This document shows positions 7,917 through 64,000 of a stretch of DNA of 64,000 nucleotides, piece by piece. The position numbers and the translations under genes are program-made. Position 1 is the stretch's first letter, and every line of letters begins with the position of its first letter. The stretch comes from a virus (taxonomy: Duplodnaviria > Caudoviricetes), in the IMG/VR virus record IMGVR_UViG_3300033073_000489, positions 18,781-82,780 of that record. The stretch is one strand, 5' to 3'. The notes below the pieces were generated by a model. The model was not told the DNA's origin and made no database searches. It saw nothing but the letters and a program-made list of their open reading frames with translations.

Positions 7917-7948
7917 TGTGTGCCTCTATGTGTGTTGAACATGTGTAT

Positions 7949-7977: not shown

Positions 7978-7994
7978 TACTCAAGTTAGCCAAA

Positions 7995-27133: not shown

Positions 27134-27961
27134 ATGTTCCAACAGGAAGTATTAGCACATAAATCAGCAATTAAAGATAAGAATTTTGTTGTTCCGGACT
27201 ATATCCTTAACAAAGGCGAAACAAACGTAAATTTGTTTAACAGGCATTGTCCACATAGGATGTATCCTTTAGCAGAACCGGGACAACACGTAGAAAATAT
27301 TCTGTGCGAACTGCACGGATTTGAATGGACTAAATCTGGAATTCCTATCAACAACGATCGAAAGATTGGTTGCGGTAGTGCTAATATTGGTAAGTCTGGA
27401 CTTGTGTTAAAAAACTTTACAGAGCCCAATCATAAATGGGTTGATGTGTTAGCCAGCGAAACTGGCTTAGAATATAGTCACATGTGTAAGGGTGCCAGCA
27501 ACGGCAACTGGTTATTCATGATGGATATTCAAGCAGATTTGTTTCATATTAGAAAAGGCGGTGTCCACCCTGGCCTATCAGAAGAGACAAACTTAGACGA
27601 AGTTACATTAGATCAGGGCGATGGTTGGGTCATACAATACTGCGCAACTGGGTTCTGGCTTGTAATTTATCCATACACTTTTATCGAATGGAGTCCCGGT
27701 TGCCTGGCGATAAACTATGTTACGCCTAACGACCCTGCAAGCGAATTTGGATTTACTTGGAATACACAGTTCTACTATGATCCTGCAACTACCTTAGAAA
27801 AACGTAAACAGTTTGAAACACTAGAAGATGTTTTTAAGGAAGACGTTGGAGCGATCGAAAAGATAAAAGGAAAATTCTTTCCTGTTATGAAATCAGAGAG
27901 TCCACTTGAGGATCACTGTGTTCACTTTGGCCAGTGGTTGTTTCAGAACAGAGTGCGGTAA
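27134..27961 (+). CDS. Rieske [2Fe-2S] oxygenase (ring-hydroxylating alpha-like)
   Basis: CPHR...CELHG Rieske motif; DLFH..GVHP mononuclear-iron His pair; EDVGAIE. Confidence 0.8.
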   Translation: MFQQEVLAHKSAIKDKNFVVPDYILNKGETNVNLFNRHCPHRMYPLAEPGQHVENILCELHGFEWTKSGIPINNDRKIGCGSANIGKSGLVLKNFTEPNHKWVDVLASETGLEYSHMCKGASNGNWLFMMDIQADLFHIRKGGVHPGLSEETNLDEVTLDQGDGWVIQYCATGFWLVIYPYTFIEWSPGCLAINYVTPNDPASEFGFTWNTQFYYDPATTLEKRKQFETLEDVFKEDVGAIEKIKGKFFPVMKSESPLEDHCVHFGQWLFQNRVR

Positions 27962-28865
27962 GTAGCTGCTCTTCTGTATAGATATAAGTGTTAGACCTAA
28001 CTTTAGCAACAATATTTTTTGCACCAAAGTCTAACATAAAGCGAGGCTTTGACATTACCCCTGGGTCTTGTTCCCCTTCAAAGCCTACCATCTTTGGTCT
28101 CACTTCAATACTTGGCCACCACTCTTGATGTATAATTGCCTTACTACTGTTAATTGACAGTTTCCCTGGGATATTGTCGTTAAGCAAGGCCTGAACCATA
28201 GGTAGACGAGTATGTGCTACAATTAGCTCAGGCGAATACTCATACCAGTCAGTAATAGCCGGACGACCTATAGTTTTATGATAAACAGCCCAGTGCTTTG
28301 GCCCTTCTGCTAGTTCAAACACCCACGGATATTTTTTAGTCATATCTCGACTAGTTCTGCGCCAGTAAGATTCCCCACTTCCAAATATAGGAGTTCCATC
28401 TAGATATTCAGTCATCTTCATATGCGGTAACCAACCTGTGCTATTTGCATAGCACTTGGACCAAATATCATACGCTTCTTGTTCAAAGAATTTTTCTAGA
28501 TTAAAATCTATCACTTTAGGAGTAACATTTAATTCTTGACAAATTTTAATAGCACGATCAAACTCTCTATAGTTGTAGTTGTTTTCGTATTTGAAGATGT
28601 AAACATTAATTGGTATTTTTAAATCGTGGTAGATTCGTAAAATAATTTCGCTGTCAATTCCACCGGAGAACAACAGATCTAGATCACCTGAGAATGTATC
28701 GCGAATAAGGGTAGCGTTTGCAGCTAATTCTTCGTAGTAGCTTCTTACAGGGCCGGTTACTATATTTTTAAGTTTAATGTTAAATCTGCTAGTTGGCTTT
28801 AGTTTAGGCCCGTATGGCTCTGCATTATCGTAGTTCCATTCTAACCAATTATCTTTATAAAACAT
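27885..28865 (-). CDS. AsnB-like / PP-loop adenylating enzyme
   Basis: LLFSGGIDSE; start moved to MFYKDNW. Confidence 0.7.
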   Translation of the reverse strand: MFYKDNWLEWNYDNAEPYGPKLKPTSRFNIKLKNIVTGPVRSYYEELAANATLIRDTFSGDLDLLFSGGIDSEIILRIYHDLKIPINVYIFKYENNYNYREFDRAIKICQELNVTPKVIDFNLEKFFEQEAYDIWSKCYANSTGWLPHMKMTEYLDGTPIFGSGESYWRRTSRDMTKKYPWVFELAEGPKHWAVYHKTIGRPAITDWYEYSPELIVAHTRLPMVQALLNDNIPGKLSINSSKAIIHQEWWPSIEVRPKMVGFEGEQDPGVMSKPRFMLDFGAKNIVAKVRSNTYIYTEEQLLTALCSETTTGQSEHSDPQVDSLIS

Positions 28866-28885
28866 GTTTTGTCCTGTAAGTGAGA

Positions 28886-28893
28886 TATTTATA
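28886..28893 (-). promoter_or_regulatory. T4-type late promoter
   Basis: TATAAATA 20 nt before ATG 28865. Confidence 0.6.
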
Positions 28894-28938
28894 GGGCTAG
28901 TTAAAGCTGTAGATAAATACTGAATAAAGGAATTCAAT

Positions 28939-29736
28939 ATGTCAATCACAGCTAGCAAGATTAAATCATTATGGTATCCACGAGAGTGGTTCTTTATTCT
29001 AATGCAATTATTAGCCGCAGGATCGTTTGTGTGGGCATTACTTAATCCTGCAGGATTAGACTATTGGTTGCTGTCCCTATTGGGTTATTTTCTAATCACG
29101 TGTTTAGGCATTACTGTTACATTTCACAGACTGTTAACACATCGCTCTTATGTGCTAGCTAAACCGTTAGAAAGACTGTTTAGTTTCTTTGGCAACATTG
29201 GCTGCACCGGCAGTTCAGTTGGGTGGGTCTTTGTCCACAGGGCTCATCACAAACATGCAGATCAAGCAGGTGACCCGCACAGTCCAGTAACCTTAGGACC
29301 TGTTGGGGCTATAGTTGGTGACTACGGCGGTCCATTTAATAAATGGTTAGTTAAGGATATCATCAACGATCCAGTTCAGCGCTTTATGCACGAATACTAT
29401 ATTGCAATGATCCTTGCTCTGTTAGCAGGATTGTTCATTGTTAATCCGTTAGTTGCAGTATACTTGTTTTTAATTCCAGTATTCTTTAATACGATTGCAT
29501 CACGTTTTAGTAATTGGATTGATCACGATCCTAAGTTTGGAACTCGCCCTGTAGAAACTAAAGATGCTTCACACAACGTTTGGTGGTGGGCATATTTGAC
29601 ATTTGGCGAAGGTTGGCACAACAACCATCACGCACGACCCGGCGATTATCAAATTGGTAAAAAATGGTATCAGTTCGATCCGGGCAGATATGTTATTGAG
29701 TTGTTGATGCTTTTAAAACTAGCACATCCTAGATAA
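28939..29736 (+). CDS. Membrane fatty-acid desaturase
   Basis: HRLLTH, HRAHH, GEGWHNNHH; DPHSP. Confidence 0.9.
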   Translation: MSITASKIKSLWYPREWFFILMQLLAAGSFVWALLNPAGLDYWLLSLLGYFLITCLGITVTFHRLLTHRSYVLAKPLERLFSFFGNIGCTGSSVGWVFVHRAHHKHADQAGDPHSPVTLGPVGAIVGDYGGPFNKWLVKDIINDPVQRFMHEYYIAMILALLAGLFIVNPLVAVYLFLIPVFFNTIASRFSNWIDHDPKFGTRPVETKDASHNVWWWAYLTFGEGWHNNHHARPGDYQIGKKWYQFDPGRYVIELLMLLKLAHPR

Positions 29737-39610: not shown

Positions 39611-39685
39611 TGGAGGTCAGGGTAGGGGTCAAACCTACCTGTATCCGGTTTGCAATCGGAAGCATAGTCGCTCTGCCACCTGACC
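39611..39685 (-). tRNA. tRNA-Cys(GCA)
   Basis: Cloverleaf, loop UUGCAAA, U73, CCA encoded. Confidence 0.9.
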
Positions 39686-39691
39686 ATTGCT

Positions 39692-39766
39692 TGGTGGATC
39701 GTGTAGGGATCGAACCTACGACCTACGCCGTGTAAAGGCGGAGCTCTACCGCTGAGCTAACGATCC
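39692..39766 (-). tRNA. tRNA-Val(UAC)
   Basis: Cloverleaf, loop UUUACAC, CCA. Confidence 0.92.
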
Positions 39767-40192
39767 AATATGCTTTACTTCAATCCCGGACTTTTCCAGG
39801 AAATTTATTCCGCTATCATCCCGATAGTGGCTACCAAAAAATACACGAGCAATACCTGACTGATGGATAAGTTTGGCGCACTCAATGCAAGGACTGTGAG
39901 TGACAAATAAATCAGCACCCAAGCCACTATTACTAGACTTTGCCAACTTAGCAATCGCATTAGATTCTGCATGTAATACCTCTGGCTTTGTTTTCAACGA
40001 AGTTGTATCATCAGAATGTTGTATAACATCTTCGCAGTTGTTATCCCAACCGGCTGGCATACCATTGTAGCCATAACTGATGACACAGTCGTCTTTAACA
40101 ATAACGGCTCCGACTTGCAAACGTTTTGCGTGACTTAGCTGAGTCAGGCGTGTAGCCCAATCCATGTATAAGTCTATATACTTTTGCTTCAT
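39746..40192 (-). CDS. dCMP deaminase
   Basis: VGAVIV, GYNG, HAESNAI, SPCIEC. Confidence 0.92.
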   Translation of the reverse strand: MKQKYIDLYMDWATRLTQLSHAKRLQVGAVIVKDDCVISYGYNGMPAGWDNNCEDVIQHSDDTTSLKTKPEVLHAESNAIAKLAKSSNSGLGADLFVTHSPCIECAKLIHQSGIARVFFGSHYRDDSGINFLEKSGIEVKHIGSLAQR

Positions 40193-40419
40193 ACCCGTTT
40201 TAAATACTCTTTACCGACTTTACCAGCTTGGATTTCTTCCAATGCTGTTAGCGCACTATGCACATGTTCACGCTTGTCGCTTTCGCGATGTTGACGTTTA
40301 ATTTCACGTGCCCTAGCAGCCGCAATTAAAACAAGATCAAATCGATTACCGCCTGCGTTTTCTACGCACTTCTCAGTGTCTACATTTGGTCCACGACTTA
40401 AAAATTTTGATTGCAACAT
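40189..40419 (-). CDS. rpoZ: RNA polymerase omega subunit homolog
   Basis: NRFDLVLIAAARAREI...ALEEIQAGK. Confidence 0.85.
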   Translation of the reverse strand: MLQSKFLSRGPNVDTEKCVENAGGNRFDLVLIAAARAREIKRQHRESDKREHVHSALTALEEIQAGKVGKEYLKRV

Positions 40420-40438
40420 ACGCTGTCCTTAATGTTTA

Positions 40439-40467
40439 ATTATATAGCAATGTTTGACAAGTGTCAA
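40439..40467 (-). promoter_or_regulatory. sigma70-type promoter
   Basis: TTGACA-N17-TATAAT upstream of rpoZ. Confidence 0.85.
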
Positions 40468-40476
40468 CATTTAAAT

Positions 40477-40551
40477 TGGTCTCGTAGCCCGGAATCGAAC
40501 CAGGATCTACTCTTTAGGAGAGAGCCGTTCTGTCCATTGAACTACAACGAG
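40477..40551 (-). tRNA. tRNA-Arg(CCU)
   Basis: Loop CUCCUAA, CCA. Confidence 0.9.
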
Positions 40552-40552
40552 C

Positions 40553-40651
40553 TGGTCCCTCTGGCAGGACTCGAACCTGCACACTCAGGCTTATCTGGCC
40601 TGTGCTTTGGCGAGGTATAAGCTCGCGTCTTTACCATTAAGCTACAGAGGG
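40553..40651 (-). tRNA. tRNA-Ile(UAU) with 29-nt extra arm
   Basis: GCGAG-CUUAUAC-CUCGC; extra arm AGGC-CAGAUAA-GCCU. Confidence 0.75.
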
Positions 40652-40655
40652 AAAT

Positions 40656-40733
40656 TGGTCGGGGTGGTGGGATTCGAACTCACGACCCTCTGCTCCCAAA
40701 GCAGATGCGCTAACCAGACTGCGCTACACCCCG
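40656..40733 (-). tRNA. tRNA-Pro(UGG)
   Basis: Loop UUUGGGA, CCA. Confidence 0.93.
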
Positions 40734-40740
40734 AATAAAC

Positions 40741-41334
40741 TTAGACTAGGTTAGGACCACATACCCAACCGACTAGCGTTTTTCTTACCCCTTTAGTTAC
40801 AGGAGTAACGCTGTGCGGTATGTATGATGGAAACAAAACCATCTCACCTTTTTGCAAGTTAGCAGAATACGGCTCTTTGCTAACATGAAATAATAAATCA
40901 CCGCCTTCGAACTCGCTAGGATCATTTAACAATATGCTAAAAGATATCTTGCGATTGAAGCCATTTGTATTTCTTAATTGTGTATCACAATGAATATCGT
41001 AAAACCCAAGATTTGAACTTTCGTAAACCGAGTATTGCAACACTTCGGTATAGTTTAAACTGTATCTAAAATGTGTTGTGTTAACACTTAACACAACGTC
41101 AAATACCTTTGTGTATAATCCAGAAAACACTTCCATGTCATGTAAGAACATAACACTGGACCTACGATAGTCTGTGTCTACAGGGTCGTTATCAGTTCTA
41201 ACTTCCGCCTCTACTAGTTGGTCCGGAAACGCACTCGCGTAATTTTCAATAACTTTGATCTCTTCATCGGACAATACATTTGGGATCTTATAATCCCATC
41301 CGATAATTTGATCAGGTGGTTCGAACCAAATCAT
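40741..41334 (-). CDS. 2OG-Fe(II) oxygenase (PKHD/P4H-like)
   Basis: YDIHCD, RKISFS, FEGGDL, FPSYIPHSVTPV..G.RK.LVGW. Confidence 0.9.
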   Translation of the reverse strand: MIWFEPPDQIIGWDYKIPNVLSDEEIKVIENYASAFPDQLVEAEVRTDNDPVDTDYRRSSVMFLHDMEVFSGLYTKVFDVVLSVNTTHFRYSLNYTEVLQYSVYESSNLGFYDIHCDTQLRNTNGFNRKISFSILLNDPSEFEGGDLLFHVSKEPYSANLQKGEMVLFPSYIPHSVTPVTKGVRKTLVGWVCGPNLV

Positions 41335-41921
41335 AAAGAATCCTTATATATAAATTTAATGTTAAACGATATTGATATACGTGTGTTATCAGTATTGTTC
41401 ATCATAACTGCATGTTCTAAAAACGACGGAAATAACAACAACTTACCTTGTAGCGGTTTATGTGCCACATACTTGTTTAATAGAATTGAACTTGATATAT
41501 GTGCAGACGACGGGGACTTAAATTTAATATCACCATCTTCAACAGTTGATTGATAATAGTAGCAACCAGAGATATCTGAGAATGTATGCGAGTGATAATT
41601 TTGATATCCACCACGATCGGAAAAATTAATCCACGAGTCTGTTATTTTAAAATCAATAACAGGTAGCTTCGGGTTAACTTCTGCAAAATATTGTATCATA
41701 TGATTACGAATTGCTTCTTTAAAGATAGGAGTTTGTTCAACAAAGTTCCTAGGAGCATTATAATCAAATGATGACTTAACAGTATCATCCCACGGATTCT
41801 TTAAACTGTCGATGTCTAATGAACTAATAGCTGTAGCAATTTCTGATTGCACAAGTTTATATTCTTCGTTCTTAACTATATCAGAATAGATTGGAATTGG
41901 AAATAAATTTTCTACAGGCAC
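41331..41921 (-). CDS. Putative 2OG-Fe(II) oxygenase
   Basis: LFPIPI, HSH, ISGCYY, LFPSFLEHAV, RISISFN. Confidence 0.85.
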   Translation of the reverse strand: MPVENLFPIPIYSDIVKNEEYKLVQSEIATAISSLDIDSLKNPWDDTVKSSFDYNAPRNFVEQTPIFKEAIRNHMIQYFAEVNPKLPVIDFKITDSWINFSDRGGYQNYHSHTFSDISGCYYYQSTVEDGDIKFKSPSSAHISSSILLNKYVAHKPLQGKLLLFPSFLEHAVMMNNTDNTRISISFNIKFIYKDSL

Positions 41922-41937
41922 ACTAGTCTCTTTAAAA

Positions 41938-42011
41938 TGGAGCGGGGTAAGAGAATCGAACTCTCAGCATTAGCTTGGAAGGCTAAGGTATTACCACTAT
42001 ACGAACCCCGC
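41938..42011 (-). tRNA. tRNA-Gly(UCC)
   Basis: Loop CUUCCAA, U73. Confidence 0.93.
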
Positions 42012-42014
42012 ATA

Positions 42015-42158
42015 TTATCTTCTTGTCACTTTGCGAATTAAAATTAACCAGTAATATTTAATACCGCGGAATGTTGGCATCCAACTAAAGTCAAAGTTGA
42101 TTCCAACTTCCTTTGGAATGCTGCCATACGCTTTTTGTAATGTTTCATCTGGTTTCAT
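42015..42158 (-). CDS. Small hypothetical protein (47 aa)
   Basis: AAGGA SD; MKPDETLQKAYGSIPKEVG... Confidence 0.55.
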   Translation of the reverse strand: MKPDETLQKAYGSIPKEVGINFDFSWMPTFRGIKYYWLILIRKVTRR

Positions 42159-42174
42159 CAACATTCCTTTTGTT

Positions 42175-42249
42175 TGGTGCCGGTTGTCGGGATTGAACTG
42201 ACGACCTACCGCTTACAAGGCGGTTGCTCTACCACTGAGCTAAACCGGC
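42175..42249 (-). tRNA. tRNA-Thr(UGU)
   Basis: Loop CUUGUAA. Confidence 0.93.
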
Positions 42250-42264
42250 ATAATCTTACTTATA

Positions 42265-42531
42265 TTAAACAGGATTACCGGTTGCGTCTTCTTGATTAGT
42301 CATATACTTTTCAAGTGCTTCTTTATATTGGTCCTCATTTAAACCATGCCAACCGATACACTTACCAGTTGGGCTACGACCGCAACCGCATTTACCAATT
42401 TCGCTTGAATCTTCTTGAACTCTTACTTGCACAGGTTTATCCTTTTTAAAAATTCTATCCCAGTTAGTGTCAAATTCTTTTTGACTGATACTAAAAGGTC
42501 TCGGGCTATCACCCTTACCGCCATCACCCAT
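42265..42531 (-). CDS. CDGSH-type iron-sulfur-binding small protein
   Basis: CGCGRS...KCIGWH matches CxCxxS...CxGxH. Confidence 0.7.
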   Translation of the reverse strand: MGDGGKGDSPRPFSISQKEFDTNWDRIFKKDKPVQVRVQEDSSEIGKCGCGRSPTGKCIGWHGLNEDQYKEALEKYMTNQEDATGNPV

Positions 42532-42552
42532 AAAATCTCCTAACTAATACTT

Positions 42553-42628
42553 TGGTGGAGGTGACAGGACTTGAACCCGCTACCTTCTGAATGCAAATCA
42601 GACGCTCTCCCAGGTGAGCTACACCCCC
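42553..42628 (-). tRNA. tRNA-Ala(UGC)
   Basis: G3:U70, loop UUUGCAU. Confidence 0.93.
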
Positions 42629-42632
42629 AAAT

Positions 42633-42709
42633 TGGTTGCGGAGGCTGGATTCGAACCAGCGATTCTTGGCTTATGAGACCAAGCGGATAGACCACTTCCA
42701 TACACCGCG
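42633..42709 (-). tRNA. tRNA-Met(CAU), initiator-like
   Basis: C1:A72 mismatch, loop CUCAUAA; lacks the three G:C anticodon-stem pairs. Confidence 0.8.
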
Positions 42710-42711
42710 AT

Positions 42712-42992
42712 AATTTTTAGTATGCACATCTCTTTCACCAACGGAGCCTGTCTTATGTGCAGGGCGCGATATACATACTAAAAATGTCTAGCCACTCCCA
42801 CCACAGGAGCCCTAAACTGAGCTGTTACTCTGTCCACACCTTTTTCCATTTAGACGGCTAGTGTTGCCGCCTTTGTGATTTCTCAAGTCGTTCCTAAAGA
42901 GAACCTTGCGGTAGATCCAATGCACCGTGCTGTTCTCGCTTACAGCAATCGCGCACTTTAGTTAACGTAAAAGTGTAAAACGGGGTCTGTTA
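42712..42992 (-). ncRNA. Candidate ~280-nt multi-hairpin ncRNA
   Basis: No ORF; 16-bp stem UUUUUAGUAUGUAUAU/AUGUGCAUACUAAAAA, ACC-GCAA-GGU, GGCGGC/GCCGUC, UGCUGU/ACAGCA. Confidence 0.65.
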
Positions 42993-42993
42993 T

Positions 42994-43167
42994 TTACTCA
43001 GCAGCCTTGCGTTCTGCTTTAGATTTGACAACCACACGCGATGCAAGCTCTGCACCGATCATTGCGTGTTTCCATGCATGTCGATCTTCTGCGTTTCGAA
43101 ATTTTCCTAATGCAAGCATTGTTTTTGTTGGCTTGCTCATTTTGTAAGTTGCTGTTGGTTTTAGCAT
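42994..43167 (-). CDS. Small basic hypothetical protein (57 aa)
   Basis: Manual ORF MLKPTATYKMSKPTKTMLAL...KAAE. Confidence 0.6.
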   Translation of the reverse strand: MLKPTATYKMSKPTKTMLALGKFRNAEDRHAWKHAMIGAELASRVVVKSKAERKAAE

Positions 43168-43177
43168 TTTGGTCCTT

Positions 43178-43185
43178 TATAAATA
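43178..43185 (+). promoter_or_regulatory. T4-type late promoter
   Basis: TATAAATA 5 nt before ATG 43191. Confidence 0.6.
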
Positions 43186-43190
43186 ACGTT

Positions 43191-43994
43191 ATGCTTGATT
43201 ATACATTCCATAGACTGAATCACCGCAATAAAACGGAACAATGGCATCAATCTGATAGAGAAGATCAATATAAGACTGAAAATGTTTTCGGTCCTAATAT
43301 ATATACACCTGAATCATTTGACTATAAATTTAACAGTTACGGTTTTCGCTGTGACGAGTTTGATTTGCCTAGTGATGTGCCTATTGTATTTTTAGGTTGC
43401 AGTTTTACAGAAGGTGAAGGCCTACCAGTTGATAAGACTTGGGCGTATGTTCTACTAGAACACATAAGAAACAAAACTAAAAAGAACATTCCGTTTTGGA
43501 ATCTGGCTATATCTGGCGGAAGCACTGATATTAATGCAGGTGTTCTTGCTAATTTTATTGATCAACTTCGTCCTAGATATGTTTTTTATCTTCGACCACC
43601 GTGGATGCGTAGAGCAATCTTTGTAGAAAAAGATCATCTTCAAAACTGGATCCCTGGCTATCTTGGCTCTCCCCATCCATGGATGCTACCTACACACTTC
43701 ACAGAAACTCTAATCCACGAAGATTTTGCAATACAACAAGCTGATCGCAGTCTAACTATAATTGACTTACTTGCAGAAAGATACAACACTAAAGTCTATC
43801 ACTTTCCGTGGCAATTAGGTGAGTCTGAAAATGCAATACAGCCTTCTATCAATAGATTGAAAAATTTTTACAAATTATCAGTGCCTTGGTTAGAAAATAT
43901 AGATATGGCGCGAGATTCTCTGCATCCCGGACCAGCTACTCACAAAATGGTTGCTGATCGTCTGTGGGAGTTTGATGTGAAACATTTATTTTAA
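43191..43994 (+). CDS. SGNH-like hypothetical protein (lone plus-strand gene in the tRNA array)
   Basis: YKFNSYGFR, FLGCSFTEG (block I), NLAISG, ARDSLHPG (DxxH). Confidence 0.7.
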   Translation: MLDYTFHRLNHRNKTEQWHQSDREDQYKTENVFGPNIYTPESFDYKFNSYGFRCDEFDLPSDVPIVFLGCSFTEGEGLPVDKTWAYVLLEHIRNKTKKNIPFWNLAISGGSTDINAGVLANFIDQLRPRYVFYLRPPWMRRAIFVEKDHLQNWIPGYLGSPHPWMLPTHFTETLIHEDFAIQQADRSLTIIDLLAERYNTKVYHFPWQLGESENAIQPSINRLKNFYKLSVPWLENIDMARDSLHPGPATHKMVADRLWEFDVKHLF

Positions 43995-43995
43995 A

Positions 43996-44072
43996 TGGCT
44001 GGCATACCTGGGCTCGAACCAGGGACCCTTTGATTAACAGTCAAATGCTACTACCAACTGAGCTATATGCCA
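43996..44072 (-). tRNA. tRNA-Asn(GUU)
   Basis: U1-A72, loop CUGUUAA, G73. Confidence 0.92.
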
Positions 44073-44078
44073 ATAACC

Positions 44079-44168
44079 TGGCGGAGTGACTGGGACTTGA
44101 ACCCAGAAGCCTGCTTTCGCAAACCGACGGATTAGCAATCCGCTCCAATACCATTATGGGACCACTCC
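44079..44168 (-). tRNA. tRNA-Ser(GCU)
   Basis: Long extra arm, G73. Confidence 0.92.
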
Positions 44169-44174
44169 AATGTT

Positions 44175-44259
44175 TGGTGCGCCTAGCCGGAATCGAACCA
44201 GCACGCCTTACGGCGGGAGATTTTAAGTCTCCTGTGTCTACCTATTTCACCATAGGCGC
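44175..44259 (-). tRNA. tRNA-Leu(UAA)
   Basis: Loop CUUAAAA, long extra arm, A73. Confidence 0.93.
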
Positions 44260-44265
44260 ATAATC

Positions 44266-44466
44266 TTATATTCTACGCTTTTTCCACGTATAGTCAATAC
44301 CATCTGGGCATTTTCCATCTTCGATAGAGTCCGCACCAAACATACCGACAATTTCCATTCCGTTACCACTTATGGTGACAAAAATTCCTAATTCCTTAGC
44401 ATAAGCCATTGCTTGATCTAAGTTAACGAATTCTGTTTCTTCTTCTTTGTTTATTACTTTATACAT
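44266..44466 (-). CDS. Small hypothetical protein
   Basis: 66 aa, EIVGMFGADSI...YTWKKRR. Confidence 0.65.
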   Translation of the reverse strand: MYKVINKEEETEFVNLDQAMAYAKELGIFVTISGNGMEIVGMFGADSIEDGKCPDGIDYTWKKRRI

Positions 44467-44517
44467 TGTTAATTTTACTTTCTTTTCTCTCTCATCACAA
44501 CAATGACGACATTAATT

Positions 44518-44591
44518 TGGCATCCCGGCAGGGACTCGAACCCCGACCAACAGTTTTGGAGACTGGTATGCTGCCATTACACTACCGAGAT
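44518..44591 (-). tRNA. tRNA-Trp(CCA)
   Basis: Loop CUCCAAA, G73. Confidence 0.9.
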
Positions 44592-44598
44592 ATAAATG

Positions 44599-44740
44599 AA
44601 TTTGTTTACCGCTACACGCTGTCCAAGTCGTGCGCTGAACTTACGCTTTGTAAGTCTGTCACACGCATCAGGTTCATTAGAAAGTGTCTTGGGCGACTCT
44701 CTAATCACATATGGTATCCGTGTGCCCACATAAACAAAAC
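44599..44740 (-). ncRNA. Candidate ~140-nt structured RNA
   Basis: Closing stem UUUGUUUAU/GUAAACAAA; hairpins ACUUAC/GUAAGU and UUAGA/UCUAA. Confidence 0.5.
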
Positions 44741-44816
44741 TGGCGCCCCGTAGGGGTTTCGATCCCCTTACCTCCGCAGTGACAGTGCGGTGCTCTCCCG
44801 ATTGAGCTAACAGAGC
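44741..44816 (-). tRNA. tRNA-Asp(GUC)
   Basis: Loop CUGUCAC, G73; T loop AUCGAAA. Confidence 0.88.
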
Positions 44817-44821
44817 TAATA

Positions 44822-44911
44822 TGGCGGAAACGGTGAGATTCGAACTCACGGAGCATTTCTACTCGGCAGTTTTCAAGACTGCTGCAATAAACCGGACTCT
44901 GCCACATTTCC
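44822..44911 (-). tRNA. tRNA-Ser(UGA)
   Basis: Loop CUUGAAA, long extra arm, G73. Confidence 0.93.
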
Positions 44912-44918
44912 GTGTATT

Positions 44919-45004
44919 TGGTGGAGACGACTGGACTTGAACCAGTAATGCCATAAGGCGGCGGATTTACAGTCCACTGGGGTTACCAATTTTCCTACAT
45001 CTCC
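44919..45004 (-). tRNA. tRNA-Tyr(GUA)
   Basis: Loop CUGUAAA, long extra arm. Confidence 0.92.
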
Positions 45005-45008
45005 ATAT

Positions 45009-45091
45009 TGGTGCCCCAGGACGGACTCGAACCGTCACGCTCGCGCACTGGCTTCTAAGACCAGCGTGTCTACCAATTTCACCACCAGGGC
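45009..45091 (-). tRNA. tRNA-Leu(UAG)
   Basis: Loop CUUAGAA. Confidence 0.93.
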
Positions 45092-45100
45092 ATAAACTTT

Positions 45101-45223
45101 CCATTGTTGAATATTCTGCACTATTTGCCTATTCTCAACAGCTTTACTCGAGTTTACTGTTTATTGAATAAGTTACATAACGCACGATCTAAGCCTCTGA
45201 GCTTACAGAATACTCAACAATGG
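45101..45223 (-). ncRNA. Structured spacer whose 18-bp stem begins with the CCA of tRNA-Glu
   Basis: CCAUUGUUGAGUAUUCUG / CAGAAUAUUCAACAAUGG with two internal hairpins. Confidence 0.65.
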
Positions 45224-45295
45224 AGACCCATAGGAGAATCGAACTCCTCTTGCCAGGATGAAAACCTAGTGTCCTAACCGATAGACGAATGGGTC
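45221..45295 (-). tRNA. tRNA-Glu(UUC)
   Basis: Loop UUUUCAU. Confidence 0.9.
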
Positions 45296-45350
45296 ATTGT
45301 CACTTCAAATTTTTAAGGAACGTTGCTAACAGTTGCTAGCGTATGTATCT

Positions 45351-45379
45351 ATTATATAGCTTAAATGCAGTATTGTCAA
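45351..45379 (-). promoter_or_regulatory. Internal sigma70-type promoter of the tRNA array
   Basis: TTGACA-N17-TATAAT. Confidence 0.85.
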
Positions 45380-45410
45380 CTACTTTTTGGCTAAACTAAC
45401 AAATATATTT

Positions 45411-45484
45411 TGGTGCTCTTAGAAAGAATCGAACTTTCATTACCTCCATACCAAAGAGGCGTTCTACCATTTAACTATAAGAGC
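45411..45484 (-). tRNA. tRNA-Thr(GGU)
   Basis: Loop UUGGUAU. Confidence 0.88.
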
Positions 45485-45488
45485 AAAA

Positions 45489-45597
45489 CAGGATGATGTA
45501 GTATTGCCGGGAATCGAACCCCAATTTCAACTACGGTCCCCAATTGGACGGCCTGGCAGAACAATGGCGCCAAAAAGTGTTTGCTGGATTCATCCTA
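45489..45597 (-). ncRNA. CAGCAA-scaffold RNA copy E (partial tRNA-like insert)
   Basis: AGGAUGA-AUC-CAGCAA...UCAUCCUG; insert has GGG-UUCGAUU-CCC. Confidence 0.75.
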
Positions 45598-45601
45598 AAC
45601 T

Positions 45602-45676
45602 TGGCCGGGCCTGAGAGGATCGAACTCCCACCCTCTGGTTCGAAGCCAGAGATGATATCCATTTCACCAAAGCCCG
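45602..45676 (-). tRNA. tRNA-Arg(UCG)
   Basis: Loop CUUCGAA. Confidence 0.88.
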
Positions 45677-45683
45677 AAATACA

Positions 45684-45761
45684 TGGTGCCCCATCTCTGA
45701 TTCGAACAGAGAGAACTTCTCCTTTTGAGAGAGACGACTTTACCAATTTGTCCAATGGGGC
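45684..45761 (-). tRNA. tRNA-Leu(CAA), short extra arm
   Basis: Loop CUCAAAA; only a 6-nt variable region. Confidence 0.82.
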
Positions 45762-45768
45762 ATTATAG

Positions 45769-45929
45769 GTTTTCGAAGTGCCCAACTATCCTCCTGGGAA
45801 GACTCGCTGGATTGTCTCGAACAGGCAAGTTTAAACAAACCGGCTTCAGTCATACTGTAGTGTCAACACAGTCAACCCCACTGTGCCTAGACTGGCAGGG
45901 ACTCAAACCCATCGTCTAACTTCGAAACT
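45769..45929 (-). ncRNA. Candidate ~160-nt structured RNA with T-arm-like element
   Basis: Closing stem GUUUCGAAGU/ACUUCGAAAAC; GGG-UUUGAGU-CCC; GCACAGU/ACUGUGU. Confidence 0.55.
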
Positions 45930-46018
45930 TGGAGGAGGGATAGTAGAATCGAACTCTAACCGCTTTCGCAGTCCATCTGTTTTCAAGACAGTGCTGGGCC
46001 CAGCCCAGATAACCCTCC
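45930..46018 (-). tRNA. Atypical tRNA-Ser(UGA)
   Basis: Loop CUUGAAA, long extra arm, CUGGG/CCCAG D stem, bulged T stem, U73. Confidence 0.65.
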
Positions 46019-46109
46019 ATAATAAAAACGCACTCGTCACTTTTCACGACGGTGGTGTGCAGTCCTTACAACCTAACTTATAGCTAGGTCAAGTGCGTTT
46101 TTATTATGG
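46017..46109 (-). ncRNA. Structured spacer pairing the upstream tRNA CCA with the downstream tRNA 5' GG
   Basis: CCAUAAUAAAAACGCACU / AGUGCGUUUUUAUUAUGG, perfect 18 bp. Confidence 0.7.
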
Positions 46110-46227
46110 CCCCGCCCCGTGGATTCGAACCACGATCTCGTCCTTGACATGGAATTGTGTATTATGCTGACTGTATCCTTAACAGGATAACCTTTTAATA
46201 CGTGTGCTACCATTACACCAAGGCGGG
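46107..46227 (-). tRNA. 121-nt tRNA-like gene with expanded anticodon domain
   Basis: Normal acceptor, D and T arms, G73-CCA; insert carries UAUCC-UGUUAA-GGAUA and UCC-AUGUCAA-GGA. Confidence 0.7.
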
Positions 46228-46235
46228 TTAAATTG

Positions 46236-46310
46236 TGGTCTCGCCTGCAGGAATCGAACCCACATTCACAGGGTAGAAGCCTATTGTATTTTCCATTATA
46301 CGAAAGCGAG
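46236..46310 (-). tRNA. tRNA-Arg(UCU)
   Basis: Loop CUUCUAC. Confidence 0.88.
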
Positions 46311-46317
46311 AATTGAA

Positions 46318-46512
46318 TTTGTAAGCATTGCGTCCCTCATATCGCAAACATTTTCCCTTGTAATAAAGCCGGCAGGGTCAAGATACGTCATTACAGTTAC
46401 TCATCCAACGCTTCTATATTTGTGCTAGGGTATTGCGCCCCTCGTTGTTTACCTAATCTTTGGCTGGCCAGCTACTCGAGTTGGTGACTTTCACTTACTG
46501 ACACTTACAAAA
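46318..46512 (-). ncRNA. Candidate ~195-nt structured RNA
   Basis: Closing stem UUUGUAAG/CUUACAAA; AGGG-GCGCAAUA-CCCU, UGUAAUGA/UUAUUACA, UUGCG/CGCAA. Confidence 0.55.
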
Positions 46513-46514
46513 CT

Positions 46515-46589
46515 TGGCGCCCGCATATGGAATCGAACCACAATCCCCGGCTTCGTAGACCAGTGTATTATCCATTATACTATGCGGGC
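46515..46589 (-). tRNA. tRNA-Arg(ACG)
   Basis: Loop CUACGAA. Confidence 0.9.
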
Positions 46590-46597
46590 AAATTAAA

Positions 46598-46656
46598 CAG
46601 GATGCATTTACTTTTTTCCGAATAAAAGAAATGTAATGTTTGCTGTTAGCATCCTA
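46598..46656 (-). ncRNA. CAGCAA-scaffold RNA copy F (short)
   Basis: AGGAUGC-UAA-CAGCAA...GCAUCCUG. Confidence 0.75.
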
Positions 46657-46660
46657 AAAC

Positions 46661-46736
46661 TGGGGAGTTATATGAGGATCGAACTCATACTAGCGGAATC
46701 ACAACCCGCGGTGCAGACCACTACACTAATAACTCC
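46661..46736 (-). tRNA. tRNA-His(GUG)
   Basis: G-1:C73, loop UUGUGAU. Confidence 0.92.
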
Positions 46737-46744
46737 ATAGAACT

Positions 46745-46819
46745 TGGTAGTTCCTACTGGTGTCGAACCAGTCACCTCTACAATGTCAATGTAGCGTTCT
46801 ACCGATGAACTAAGGAACT
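46745..46819 (-). tRNA. tRNA-Val(GAC)
   Basis: Loop UUGACAU. Confidence 0.9.
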
Positions 46820-46821
46820 GT

Positions 46822-46899
46822 TGGTGCGGGATAGGAGATTCGAACTCCTTCTTGCTGGGTGGAAGCCAACTGTGCTAGGCCGTTAAACACTAATCACGC
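46822..46899 (-). tRNA. tRNA-Gly(UCC) variant
   Basis: Loop CUUCCAC; A73. Confidence 0.8.
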
Positions 46900-46905
46900 A
46901 TAACT

Positions 46906-46979
46906 TGGTGCGGGGTAAGGGAGTCGAACCCTTGACTAAACGTTGGCAACGTTTGATTTTACCGTTAAACTAACCACGC
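46906..46979 (-). tRNA. tRNA-Gly(GCC)
   Basis: Loop UUGCCAA; A73. Confidence 0.85.
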
Positions 46980-46986
46980 ATTAAAT

Positions 46987-47061
46987 TGGTAGCCATGGAC
47001 AATTTTGAAATGTCGACCCTCGCCTTATCAAGACGATGCTCTTCCTCTGAGCTACACGGCT
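46987..47061 (-). tRNA. tRNA-Ile(GAU) variant
   Basis: Loop UUGAUAA; atypical T arm GACAU-UUCAAAA-UUGUC. Confidence 0.78.
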
Positions 47062-47062
47062 A

Positions 47063-47136
47063 TGGTTCCTCCAACAAGAATTGAACTTGTAATGACCGGT
47101 TATCAGCCGATTGTTATACCATTTAACTATAGAGGA
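47063..47136 (-). tRNA. tRNA-Ile(GAU)
   Basis: Loop CUGAUAA. Confidence 0.88.
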
Positions 47137-47142
47137 ATAATT

Positions 47143-47217
47143 TGGTGGTGAAGGTGAGATTCGAACTCACACCTTGCTCCGTATGAAGGAGGTGCACAAC
47201 CATTATGCTACTTCACC
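47143..47217 (-). tRNA. tRNA-Met/Ile2(CAU)
   Basis: Loop UUCAUAC; identity not resolvable by eye. Confidence 0.82.
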
Positions 47218-47298
47218 ATATGGAAACACACTAGCCTGCAGGACTACTATTAACTCCACGGGTTCGCCGCTGTTAATAGGTAATGTGTTTTCATATGG
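47216..47298 (-). ncRNA. Structured spacer pairing the upstream tRNA CCA with the downstream tRNA 5' GG
   Basis: CCAUAUG-A-AAACACA / UGUGUUU-C-CAUAUGG plus CUAUUAAC/GUUAAUAG hairpin. Confidence 0.65.
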
Positions 47299-47370
47299 TC
47301 GGAGCACGGGGATTCGAACCCCGAACTGGCGGATTAAAAGTCCGCTGTGATACCATTTCACCATACTCCG
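47296..47370 (-). tRNA. tRNA-Lys(UUU)
   Basis: Loop CUUUUAA. Confidence 0.92.
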
Positions 47371-47374
47371 TATA

Positions 47375-47449
47375 TGGTCCCTCCAGACGGATTCGAACCG
47401 TCACCTCATCGGGTAAGAGCCGAGTATGCTACCATAACACCTCGAAGGG
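47375..47449 (-). tRNA. tRNA-Lys(CUU)
   Basis: Loop CUCUUAC. Confidence 0.85.
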
Positions 47450-47543
47450 ATAGCTTGTATTAAAAAGATCTTTAACATCTTACACTCAGTTAAAGAGTTC
47501 TTTAATGTGCCATCCCGGACCAATACGGAGTCTCAGGATGACA

Positions 47544-47567
47544 CTATCGTTTCATTGAACGTTTCAT
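47544..47567 (-). CDS. Micro-ORF MKRSMKR-amber followed by a hairpin
   Basis: GGAG SD 6 nt upstream; ATG AAA CGT TCA ATG AAA CGA TAG, then an 8-bp stem. Confidence 0.4.
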   Translation of the reverse strand: MKRSMKR

Positions 47568-47590
47568 GTCATTCTCCAAAAAAAAAAATG

Positions 47591-47666
47591 TGGTGCCGCC
47601 TCTAGGGATCGAACCTAGTTCCTCGGTGCTTCAAACCGGTGCTATGACCACATCAGCTAAAGCGGC
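47591..47666 (-). tRNA. tRNA-Phe(GAA)
   Basis: Loop UUGAAGC. Confidence 0.85.
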
Positions 47667-47674
47667 AAATAAAA

Positions 47675-47738
47675 CAGGATGTATTTTTACGGTTTAGATT
47701 AAAAGTCTAATGTATAAATTTTTGCTGTTAACATCCTA
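47675..47738 (-). ncRNA. CAGCAA-scaffold RNA copy G carrying a Lys(UUU)-type anticodon stem-loop
   Basis: AGGAUGU-UAA-CAGCAA...UUAGA-CUUUUAA-UCUAA...ACAUCCUG. Confidence 0.8.
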
Positions 47739-47743
47739 AAACT

Positions 47744-47817
47744 TGGTGCTCCATCGAGGAATCGAACCACGATTGCCGGACTACAAAACCGGAGTATTAC
47801 CATTATACTAATAGAGC
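47744..47817 (-). tRNA. tRNA-Thr(UGU) variant
   Basis: Loop UUUGUAG. Confidence 0.85.
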
Positions 47818-47824
47818 ATTAACT

Positions 47825-47902
47825 TGGTCTCCACGGTAGGATTCGAACCTACAGCCTCCTGACTCCAGATCAGGCCGTCTACCAGATTGACATTACGCAG
47901 AG
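47825..47902 (-). tRNA. tRNA-Pro(UGG) variant
   Basis: Loop UCUGGAG (C33). Confidence 0.8.
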
Positions 47903-47909
47903 ATAAACT

Positions 47910-47983
47910 TGGTGCTTCGTAAAGGAATCGAACCTCTATCTACGGTATGTAACACCGTGGCCCTGCCATTAGACGAACGAAGC
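47910..47983 (-). tRNA. tRNA-Val(UAC) variant
   Basis: Loop GUUACAU (G32). Confidence 0.82.
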
Positions 47984-47988
47984 ATATT

Positions 47989-48075
47989 TGGTGGATAGCA
48001 ACAGAATCGAACTGTTACCCTTTTCAGGGTAGACCGGTTTAGCAAACCAGCTCGTTACCATAAACACTACTATCC
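47989..48075 (-). tRNA. tRNA-Ser(GCU) variant
   Basis: Loop UUGCUAA, long extra arm, A73. Confidence 0.78.
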
Positions 48076-48081
48076 ATAACT

Positions 48082-48156
48082 TGGTGGAAGCCGAGGGAAT
48101 CGAACCCTTCTAGACACGATGCTTGCAAGGCAACGCCGTAGCCCACTACTGCCCCC
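48082..48156 (-). tRNA. tRNA-Ala(UGC) variant with reduced D arm
   Basis: G3:U70, D arm GUAG-UGGG-CUAC, loop CUUGCAA. Confidence 0.75.
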
Positions 48157-48162
48157 AAATTT

Positions 48163-48236
48163 TGGCACCCCCACCAGGATTCGAACCTGGAACGACTGAG
48201 TCAAAGTCAGTTGTGTTACCATTACACCATGGAGGA
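48163..48236 (-). tRNA. tRNA-Gln(UUG)
   Basis: Loop CUUUGAC, G73. Confidence 0.88.
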
Positions 48237-48247
48237 ACAGATTAAAA

Positions 48248-48371
48248 CAGGATAGAATTTAACATAGTGCTACCGTTACACCAAACACCGCCTAAGCGAT
48301 GCCGCGGAGTCGAACCGCTCCCTTACTTTTCAAGAGTAGTAGTTGTTATTAATTTTGCTGTTACTATCCTA
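48248..48371 (-). ncRNA. CAGCAA-scaffold RNA copy H, YrlA-like permuted tRNA mimic
   Basis: AGGAUAG/CUAUCCU encloses UACU-CUUGAAA-AGUA, T arm GCGG-UUCGACU-CCGC, closed acceptor GGCAUCGC-UUAG-GCGGUGUU and D arm GUG-UAACGGUAG-CAC. Confidence 0.85.
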
Positions 48372-48382
48372 AAACTTCTTTG

Positions 48383-48458
48383 CTCCGCATTTGAGAATCG
48401 AACTCAACTAACCACTGATTAACAGTCAGGTCCATGCACCTTGCTCGGATTTTGCGGA
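48383..48458 (-). tRNA. tRNA-Asn(GUU) variant without encoded CCA
   Basis: Loop CUGUUAA, G73; leader CUUCUUCGC pairs with trailer GCAAAGAAG. Confidence 0.65.
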
Positions 48459-48537
48459 GCGAAGAAGTCTTTGCATTAGTTTCTATATCCCCCATTGAAA
48501 CTAACAAACATTGAGTGTATTGCTACACTATTTGCCC

Positions 48538-48612
48538 TGGCGCCGTAGACGAGAATCGAACTCGCCTTAGTCGGATAGACAATCCGTTGCCCTCCCAGAG
48601 AACTACTACGGC
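48538..48612 (-). tRNA. tRNA-Asp(GUC) variant
   Basis: Loop UUGUCUA (U37), G73. Confidence 0.8.
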
Positions 48613-48617
48613 ATATA

Positions 48618-48695
48618 TGGTGCAGCCAAAGGACTCGAACCTTTGCGGGAAACTAGTATGCGGCGCACAGGGCGCCTACCCCATTCCATTGCTGC
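48618..48695 (-). ncRNA. Aberrant tRNA-like RNA (acceptor, T arm and CCA; no canonical D or anticodon arm)
   Basis: GCAGC/GCUGC-ACCA, AAAGG-UUCGAGU-CCUUU; internal GGCGC-CCUGU-GCGCC. Confidence 0.6.
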
Positions 48696-48700
48696 AAAAT

Positions 48701-48775
48701 TGGTATCGCGGACGGGAATCGAACCCGCCTCTTTGGCTTGAAGGGCCAAGGACCTACCCAGAAGTCCACCGCGAT
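48701..48775 (-). tRNA. tRNA-Glu(UUC) variant
   Basis: Loop CCUUCAA (C33), A73. Confidence 0.78.
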
Positions 48776-48780
48776 ATAAC

Positions 48781-48857
48781 TGGAACACCGGGTGGGACTC
48801 AAACCCACGGCTTTACGGATTTGCAATCCGCTACATTGGTCGCTCTGTCACCGGTGC
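48781..48857 (-). tRNA. tRNA-Cys(GCA)
   Basis: Loop UUGCAAA, U73. Confidence 0.88.
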
Positions 48858-63982: not shown

Positions 63983-64000
63983 ATTATAAAACACACTAGA

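Follow-up and report, generated by a model that had tools for sequence, protein, structure and literature searches.

A phage tRNA-Ile(UAU) with a second, tRNA-Ile(GAU)-like arm: a conserved two-arm architecture and its possible role in isoleucine identity

Can a single tRNA carry two isoleucine-type anticodon loops, and if it does, what would each of them be for? The question is raised by a gene in IMG/VR virus record IMGVR_UViG_3300033073_000489 (Duplodnaviria; Caudoviricetes), of which positions 18,781 to 82,780 were analysed as one stretch of 64,000 nucleotides (nt; the window). At 40553-40651 on the minus strand, read as the reverse complement, lies a 99-nt tRNA gene with an encoded CCA end, in which an arm with the anticodon UAU is followed by a second hairpin whose loop resembles that of tRNA-Ile(GAU). 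A preliminary description of this locus had proposed that one loop serves recognition by isoleucyl-tRNA synthetase (IleRS) and the other decodes AUA without the modification enzyme TilS, or else that the second loop is a built-in decoy. The two-arm design proves to be a real, conserved tRNA architecture, of which a literature search found no earlier description, and its long forms, including the window gene, are predicted to adopt two cloverleaves of nearly equal energy, an element that goes beyond the preliminary description. The reading preferred here, with a probability of roughly 50%, is that isoleucine identity comes from the second arm and that the UAU arm reads AUA independently of TilS.

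The gene encodes a real tRNA, as its Rfam score, its 7/5 acceptor/T geometry and its covarying helices establish. It matches the Rfam tRNA model RF00005 with 56.8 bits against a gathering score of 29 (40556-40651, model positions 1-71). The 5′ strand of the acceptor stem, CCCUCUG (40645-40651), pairs with 40557-40563 and is followed by U8 and A9 (UA), by the 5′ strand of the D stem, GCUU (40639-40642), and by the D loop AAUGGUA. A first candidate 3′ strand for the D stem, AAGA (40628-40631), and a single C then lead into the UAU arm, GCGAG-CUUAUAC-CUCGC (40610-40626, loop 40615-40621), a perfect 5-bp stem with a 7-nt loop. Between this arm and the T arm lie 29 nt, CAAAGCA-CAGGC-CAGAUAA-GCCUG-AGUGU, made up of a linker that contains a second candidate D-stem 3′ strand, AAGC (40604-40607), the second arm (40586-40602, loop 40591-40597) and the segment AGUGU (40581-40585). 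The T arm, GCAGG-UUCGAGU-CCUGC (40564-40580), has a 5-bp stem and a loop of the UUCRANY form and is 99.8-100% paired in the alignments described below; the acceptor 3′ strand CAGAGGG, the isoleucine-compatible discriminator A73 (40556) and the CCA end (40553-40555) complete the molecule (40553-40563). Both hairpins are thus present as the preliminary description had drawn them, except that the second stem comprises five base pairs (CAGGC/GCCUG), not the four (AGGC/GCCU) that it had counted.

Contigs assembled from three RNA libraries of three studies span 40553-40650 unbroken, with 1-8 differences and no internal joint, and this continuity across the whole tRNA led to rejection of the idea that an intron is spliced from it. 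The same contigs leave the protein genes on either side uncovered, in contrast to a run that is probably DNA. Contigs cannot prove transcription, these pieces stem from relatives and DNA may be present in such libraries; that the RNA retains both hairpins is therefore weakly hinted at.

The design recurs in cultured phages and in viral contigs. BLAST against cultured phages recovered an annotated 88-nt tRNA-Ile of Acinetobacter phage vB_AbaS_qsb1 that has the loops CUUAUAC and CAGAUAA with a shorter second stem, and a copy without annotation in Klebsiella and Escherichia phages of the Rogunavirinae. A first IMG/VR pattern scan returned 106 stretches. Later scans each left one element free, either the second loop or the first, and were directed at a long type, to which the window gene belongs, or at a short type with 21 nt between the UAU and T arms. 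With the second loop free, 87 stretches of the long type (80 loci read, 61 distinct sequences) gave CAGAUAA in 37 and UAGAUAA in 24, and 50 stretches of the short type (30 distinct) gave CAGAUAA in 28 and UAGAUAA in 2. The loop on whose conservation the preliminary description had staked its proposal is therefore YAGAUAA in 91/91 distinct sequences. With the first loop free, at least 118 long-type stretches (80 loci read, 68 distinct) and at least 119 short-type stretches (103 loci read, 62 distinct) were found, and the anticodon was UAU, within an invariant UUAU, in 68/68 and 62/62, hence in 130/130 distinct sequences among the matches listed. The bases around this core vary: long-type first loops read CUUAUAC in 42 cases and CUUAUAA, UUUAUAC/A/U, CUUAUAU, AUUAUAC, CUUAUUC or UUUAUGC in the other 26, and short-type loops read CUUAUAC (27), UUUAUAU (25), UUUAUAC (7), CUUAUAU (2) and CUUAUAA (1).

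Pooling yielded at least 128 distinct full-length sequences with the two-loop design in viral contigs. All 128 have A73 and 121 encode CCA, and the decoding loop has C38 instead of A38 in 92 of the 128, one of which was not parsed by the positional test of the first loop. The canonical tRNA-Ile(GAU) genes of the window have the loops UUGAUAA and CUGAUAA; the second loop of the two-arm tRNA equals such a loop except at position 33, which is A instead of U in every one of the 91 sequences, a feature absent from the preliminary description.

Two alignments were used to assess base pairing, A1 with 99 long-type sequences and A2 with 55, the latter being described below. Covariation of the second stem in homologs, which the preliminary description had named as a check, was found at 5/5 pairs in both: each pair has changed on both sides, and the arm is 98.6% paired in A1 and 99.6% in A2. 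The UAU arm likewise covaries at 5/5 pairs (A1) and the acceptor stem at 7/7 (A1), the latter being 100% paired in both alignments. The observed covariation score was reached by none of 500 shuffles, and slid controls were 36-49% paired (A1). Recurrence, covariation and shuffles together exclude chance as the origin of the two-arm design.

Where the second hairpin sits in the molecule depends on which strand closes the D stem. In the Rfam alignment of the window gene, CAGGC-CAGAUAA-GCCUG takes the place of the anticodon arm, GCUU pairs with the downstream AAGC, and the UAU hairpin becomes a 25-nt insertion in the D loop. In fold A, the D stem is GCUU/AAGA (three of four pairs formed), the UAU arm occupies the anticodon position and the 29 nt form a long extra arm, with AGUGU as its 3′ linker. 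In fold B, the D stem is GCUU/AAGC (four of four pairs), the GAU-like arm occupies the anticodon position, AGUGU is a 5-nt variable loop of class I size and the UAU hairpin is looped out. Since GCUU can pair with either 3′ strand, either arm can occupy the anticodon-arm position in the long forms. The preliminary description had placed the second hairpin on the variable region, which holds in fold A; the hairpin fits the anticodon-arm position equally well, by the Rfam alignment and by the covariation of both pairings. Nearest-neighbour energies calculated for the window gene are -31.8 kcal/mol for fold A and -32.3 kcal/mol for fold B. Over 115 long sequences, the median of E(B)-E(A) is -0.5 kcal/mol: fold B is favoured by over 0.5 kcal/mol in 55 sequences, fold A is favoured in 28, and in the other 32 the folds differ by no more than 0.5.

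In A1, the D stem is 65.4% paired in fold A, with G10 unpaired in 93/99 sequences, and 87.9% paired in fold B. Two of the scans that feed A1 impose AAGC, and A2 was therefore built for the D-stem question from 54 long-type sequences of scans that do not impose it, together with the window gene. Pairing in A2 is 75.5% for fold A and 92.3% for fold B, and double-sided changes occur at three of the four D-stem pairs in each fold; in fold A, pairs 12 and 13 covary. With either partner strand, position 12 forms U-A in 51-52 sequences and C-G in 3, and position 13 forms U-A in 27 and C-G in 10; the pair 10-52 is G-C in 54 and U-A in 1. Sets of three strands (5′ strand/first/second 3′ strand) include GCUU/AAGA/AAGC, GCUC/GAGC/GAGC and GCCG/AGGC/AGGC, which recur, and GCUG/AAGC/CAGC. 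Both 3′ strands track one 5′ strand, which points to selection on both pairings.

The biochemistry of IleRS offers a reason for such an arrangement. IleRS reads G34, A35 and U36, with contact between the tRNA's own U33 and U36 in Staphylococcus aureus IleRS1 (PMC13752280), and the E. coli enzyme has a kcat/Km 360-fold lower for UAU than for LAU tRNA, a relative value that the single IleRS substitution W905R improves about 10-fold, recovering much of the activity (PMC3575796). The latter source also reports that UAU tRNA misreads AUG on E. coli ribosomes and that t6A37 is important for isoleucylation (PMC3575796). A phage UAU tRNA, being of the unmodified type and hence independent of host TilS, would avoid that enzyme and be poorly charged in E. 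coli-like hosts. The decoding loop CUUAUAC, with U34 and C38, lacks the IleRS loop feature G34/lysidine34-A35-U36-A37-A38, and the second loop CAGAUAA has all five positions, off their canonical place in fold A. The poor charging of UAU tRNA by the E. coli enzyme is the ground on which the second arm is read as the probable supplier of identity.

On the preferred reading, the molecule would be a functional tRNA that decodes the rare AUA codon with an unmodified-type UAU anticodon. Ordinary bacterial IleRS reads G34 (or lysidine), A35, U36, A37 and A38 and charges UAU tRNAs very poorly. The second loop, Y-A-G-A-U-A-A, would reproduce the loop of tRNA-Ile(GAU), and IleRS would read the second arm as an identity element. 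Long forms would toggle between the cloverleaves by way of either D-stem 3′ strand: in fold B the GAU-like arm would stand under the D stem for charging, and in fold A the UAU arm would stand there for decoding, with the mimic standing out in the manner of a class II variable arm. Short forms would have to achieve this exchange through alternative stacking alone. The invariant A33 probably stops the mimic loop from acting as a ribosomal anticodon, so that the common AUU and AUC codons would not use up charged molecules. Three elements of this reading are inferred from comparing the sequences: that the second arm mediates charging, that the molecule switches conformation, and what A33 does. The size of the second arm, which is that of an anticodon arm, its five IleRS-read positions and its occurrence, among the matches listed, on UAU tRNAs only fit the grafting of an identity element. 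Such a graft would account more economically than any rival for the coupling to UAU, for the size of the arm, for the second D-stem strand and for the invariant G34 of the second loop (G34′). The two-role proposal of the preliminary description is in this way partly supported, by the constancy of AGAUAA (91/91) and of UAU (130/130 among the matches listed), and it fits the poor charging of UAU tRNA by E. coli IleRS (PMC3575796) and the frequent neighbouring genes for rare-codon tRNA-Arg(UCU/CCU). A broader claim, that these molecules form a new structural class in which one arm addresses the synthetase, another the ribosome and a D-stem strand swap acts as the switch, is more tentative and on balance doubtful.

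Several observations weigh against the preferred reading. The short type keeps the same loop, yet it has a normal 4-bp D stem in 41/44 sequences and cannot form cloverleaf B, as a 4-bp second strand is present in 1/44 and absent altogether in 37/44, and the strand swap is therefore not a general mechanism. The compensatory D-stem changes of the long type are confined to few lineages, which reduces them to few independent events. The invariant A33 is no IleRS determinant and could even weaken recognition, because U33 contacts U36 in the S. aureus enzyme. Class I synthetases approach a tRNA from the side that faces away from its variable arm, so that a mimic carried there should fail to enter the anticodon pocket. 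The pairs C4-G69, U12-A23 and C29-G41 are said to have been identified by Nureki in 1994 as isoleucine identity pairs in E. coli; of these the window gene has U12-A23, with U-A at 4-69 and G-C at 29-41 in both arms. Nor are these pairs conserved in A1, where 4-69 is AU in 41, CG in 30, UA in 19 and GC in 9, and 29-41 of the second arm is GC in 77, CG in 21 and AU in 1. Finally, demand for an AUA-reading tRNA in the window comes from a subset of open reading frames (ORFs) only. The use of AUA is sharply bimodal, as 56032-58203 and 17289-18374 exemplify: the recognisable core genes (rIIA, rIIB, ligase, NAMPT, ATPase) contain no AUA codon, rIIA having 0 among 43 isoleucine codons, and the ORFs 15469-18374, 21663-22913, 24760-26088, 27885-28958 and 43041-43994, most of them without a family match, have 5-10 each.

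Whether AUA means isoleucine at all in this phage bears directly on one alternative. At the ten AUA codons of ORF 17289-18374, the aligned residues of 73 homologs, themselves predicted with the standard code, are I in 54%, L in 14%, V in 8% and S in less than 3%. The AUU/AUC columns of the same ORF have I in 43% and L in 17%, its Leu columns L in 39% and its Ser columns S in 57%. The AUA columns resemble the AUU/AUC columns and are unlike the Leu and Ser columns, which suggests that AUA still means isoleucine in the window phage. A missense tRNA of class II type, in which the long arm and A73 would make the molecule a substrate of the leucyl or seryl enzyme (LeuRS, SerRS) and AUA would be read as Leu or Ser, is for this reason scarcely credible and the least probable of the explanations considered. 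It has precedents in nev-tRNA-Ile(UAU), described as having a long variable arm and being charged with leucine in vitro (PMC3333845, PMC4300185), and in the 8/4 allo-tRNAs, among which UAU is a predominant anticodon (PMC5389517). The two-arm tRNA has the 7/5 geometry in all aligned members, however, and not 8/4 (or the 9/3 of other allo-tRNAs); hosts such as E. coli decode AUA as isoleucine anyway; and LeuRS and SerRS read no loop sequence of the variable arm, which would leave the invariant AGAUAA without explanation. A dual decoder, in which the arms would act as anticodons in turn, fold A serving AUA and fold B serving AUU/AUC, would agree with two near-isoenergetic cloverleaves that each present an isoleucine anticodon, and isoleucine would be inserted either way at no miscoding cost. 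The replacement, in every member, of the near-universal U33 needed for the U-turn by A33 makes this very unlikely, as do the inability of the short type to place its second arm canonically and the combination, in small phages, of the two-arm tRNA with rare-codon Arg tRNAs and not with common-codon tRNAs.

Three further alternatives turn on what else the second loop might bind. That it is a built-in decoy or shield, as the preliminary description had suggested, is retained as a rival, an improbable one but the least so of those weighed here: the AGAUAA hairpin would bind a host factor aimed at isoleucine loops, such as an anticodon nuclease or defence toxin, A33 would make the hairpin uncleavable, and the molecule would be protected or the factor titrated without any role in charging. 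This would account for an invariant A33 where a plain IleRS mimic could keep U33. In Vibrio phage Luma (PQ768828.1, 1-54 of the stretch read), a canonical tRNA-Ile(GAU) gene directly precedes the two-arm tRNA, and its loop, CCGAUAA, contains C33, which suggests pressure on position 33 of isoleucine loops in phages. Evasion of anticodon nucleases through loop changes in phage tRNAs has been proposed (eLife 2023; PMC10264068), and a term search of the text of that paper found nothing on isoleucine. A decoy could, however, ride on any tRNA or stand alone, and here it is found on UAU tRNAs only (130/130 among the matches listed). A literature search turned up no nuclease specific for tRNA-Ile(GAU), and we know of none. 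A decoy would also leave three features without a reason: an arm as large as an anticodon arm, its distance of 4-5 nt from the T arm, and the second strand for the D stem. Somewhat less probable again is a modification handle, by which the second arm would recruit or repel a host enzyme that acts on the real loop, such as the t6A37 machinery or a U34 modifier whose products would widen wobble and misread AUG, with charging affected only indirectly. The need for t6A37 in good isoleucylation and the misreading of AUG by UAU tRNA, from which control of U34 chemistry would matter, favour it (PMC3575796), and the C38 of 92/128 real loops may make these loops poor substrates alone. The invariant G34′ is nevertheless most simply an IleRS feature, and the alternative D-stem strand would be left unexplained. 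To our knowledge, no enzyme reads a GAU loop in order to modify another loop. Less likely than either is a codon mimic, in which AUAA of the second loop (A35′-A38′) would pair with UUAU of the first (U33-U36), within or between molecules, and so hide the anticodon or order it in advance. Both tetranucleotides are invariant and each is the exact complement of the other, and the coupling to UAU is absolute among the matches listed (130/130), but the pairing would amount to four A-U pairs at most and would leave G34′ and A33′ unexplained, and the stem and linker geometry differs greatly between short and long types, which argues against one fixed loop-loop contact.

The proposal that the second arm supplies isoleucine identity can be set beside several known systems. 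In Mycoplasma mobile and other bacteria without TilS, tRNA-Ile2(UAU) likewise reads AUA without lysidine, but this tRNA is ordinary class I, the adaptation being on the enzyme side (IleRS Arg865) and misreading of AUG being prevented by the ribosome (PMC3575796); in the phage case the host enzyme stays as it is, and it is the tRNA that bears a second, GAU-type loop. The common bacterial tRNA-Ile2, whose CAU is converted to lysidine-containing form by TilS, also secures AUA as isoleucine where IleRS needs G34 or lysidine, but requires this modification enzyme and has a single anticodon arm and a short variable loop. Class II tRNAs (Leu, Ser and bacterial Tyr) resemble fold A in having a stem-loop between the anticodon and T arms, and their long arm can be an identity element. 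By length the two-arm tRNA would belong with them, since its 29 nt (fold A) or 21 nt (short type) exceed the 10-nt limit for this region; by identity it would not, given its UAU anticodon and isoleucine-like AUA columns. The variable-arm loops of class II tRNAs have 3-5 nt and no conserved sequence, unlike the second arm with its 5 bp, 7-nt loop and invariant anticodon-loop sequence, and in the long type a 7-nt linker before the second arm holds the second D-stem strand. Nematode nev-tRNA(UAU) and the 8/4 allo-tRNA(UAU) of Acidobacteria share UAU and a long extra arm, but are charged with Leu or Ser, and allo-tRNAs have 8/4 or 9/3 geometry; the two-arm tRNA has 7/5 geometry, an Ile-like extra loop and Ile-like AUA columns. 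In the E. coli thrS mRNA, the anticodon-binding domain of the synthetase recognises an operator hairpin that imitates an anticodon loop. That mimic lies in an mRNA and represses translation, whereas the mimic of the two-arm tRNA lies inside a tRNA and would promote charging. In the open full-text literature, no tRNA-Ile(UAU) with an Ile-like or synthetase-type second loop was found described; the phrase 'two anticodon arms' does occur in work on chloroplasts, where it relates to the variable arm of tRNA-Ser and has no connection with this design.

If the preferred reading is true, amino-acid identity and codon reading would be placed on two loops of one tRNA, breaking the one-loop rule for anticodon-reading synthetases such as IleRS, and the supply of an AUA decoder in phages of E. 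coli-like hosts without dependence on TilS would be explained. It would also offer a natural template for engineering orthogonal or recoded tRNAs that retain their identity under a new anticodon. On the broader claim, a single gene of about 100 nt would let phages and mobile elements bypass both TilS and the anticodon specificity of IleRS. The question can be tested on members from cultured E. coli, Klebsiella, Vibrio and Pectobacterium phages, such as the E. coli phage gene at OL539453.1 47141-47242, and the bistable cloverleaf makes the idea mechanistically concrete. The two-arm tRNAs also matter for annotation, as genes of the long type are mostly missed by ARAGORN. This program called the short type as tRNA-Ile(UAU) in 26/28 loci and the long type in 3/32, of which one was given as Ile(UAU) and two as tRNAs of undetermined type whose anticodon has 4 nt; in the window it did not call the two-arm gene and found 43 other tRNA genes, the minus strand carrying all of them. 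Some bacterial copies are labelled truncated tRNA-Ile(GAU) or tRNA-Val, and several phage records leave the gene unannotated.

Among cultured phages, the gene is present in Escherichia phages Opt-719, Phleasolo, Sadiya, CEB_EC3a, ESCO41, BEK6, ETEP102 and UALMA_PCEc3, Klebsiella phages Opt-79 and KP13-26, Pectobacterium phages PhiM1, Arno162, Arno18 and Wc4, and Vibrio phages River4, Pylo, 12VC501, WD615, henriette 12B8 and Luma with many relatives, as well as in Xanthomonas phage Xoo-sp13, Acinetobacter phage qsb1 and one record labelled Pseudomonas. A scan of bacteria with one genome per species gave 42 stretches, about 24 of them in Xanthomonadales or Lysobacterales and others in Pyrinomonadaceae, Verrucomicrobiota, Planctomycetota, Burkholderiales, Sulfurovum, Alteromonadaceae, Hoeflea, Gallibacterium and an Oscillospiraceae bin. 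A core gene of Xanthomonadales was ruled out, the pattern being found in 4/151 sampled genomes of the Stenotrophomonas family, and complete E. coli genomes held no copy at E 1e-8 or better. This rarity and the patchy bacterial settings suggest that the gene behaves as an accessory, mobile one. A tRNA-Arg(UCU or CCU) lies within 150 nt of a family member in 16 of 60 loci, and small phages of 44-55 kb carry little else in the stretches read. The Stenotrophomonas copy adjoins KfrA-like and Gabija-like genes (OLD-TOPRIM ATPase and UvrD helicase) on one side; on the other, directly upstream of the tRNA, lies a 183-amino-acid ORF without a Pfam match (7648-8199, plus strand), which has a counterpart at the same place in Luteimonas (about 7934-8440, minus strand; 44-48% identity by tblastx). 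In the Pyrinomonadaceae bin, a short-type two-arm tRNA stands within an array of 25 tRNA genes (1295-10064) on a bacterial contig.

The window belongs to an 82.8-kb viral record rated 23% complete, and its source is a T4-like jumbo phage. Its genes include rIIA, rIIB, NAMPT, NMNAT-Nudix, dCMP deaminase, 2OG-Fe(II) oxygenases and DNA ligase, and NAMPT homologs with 84-91% identity are found on contigs of up to about 345 kb. Megablast of 40000-42000 against cultured phages returned tRNA-Pro matches only (38 records, none covering 80% of the query), and this region appears to have no close relative among them. The two-arm tRNA stands at the edge of a tRNA cluster, between tRNA-Pro(UGG) and the rare-codon tRNA-Arg(CCU) called by ARAGORN at 40477-40551 on the minus strand.

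The cluster holds about 40 tRNA genes on the minus strand within about 9-10 kb (39611-48857). Several anticodons are duplicated in it, in copies that differ: Ile GAU, Gly UCC, Val UAC, Thr UGU, Pro UGG and Ala UGC, and likewise Asp GUC, Glu UUC, Cys GCA, Ser GCU and Met CAU. One of the AUA-rich ORFs (27885-28958, minus strand; 357 amino acids) weakly matches a PP-loop family over residues 96-157 (Pfam QueC, 25.5 bits); some enzymes that modify tRNA, TilS among them, are PP-loop ATPases. A second 99-nt tRNA-like gene with an encoded CCA lies at 15279-15377 on the minus strand, called tRNA-Arg(UCG) by ARAGORN and scoring 26 bits in Rfam (threshold 29). Its 'anticodon arm' is a 6-bp hairpin with a UUCG tetraloop followed by a hairpin with a 3-nt loop, with no obvious anticodon, and BLAST against cultured phages matched its T-arm end only. 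Just downstream of rIIB, at 54977-55051 (minus strand), is a tRNA that would recognise the amber stop codon through its anticodon CUA; ARAGORN calls it tRNA-Pyl, and it scores 41.3 bits with the Rfam tRNA model. At 63811-64000 (minus strand), cut by the end of the window, a match to the permuted, two-piece transfer-messenger RNA model RF04321 (53.9 bits, threshold 47) represents unusual cargo for a phage.

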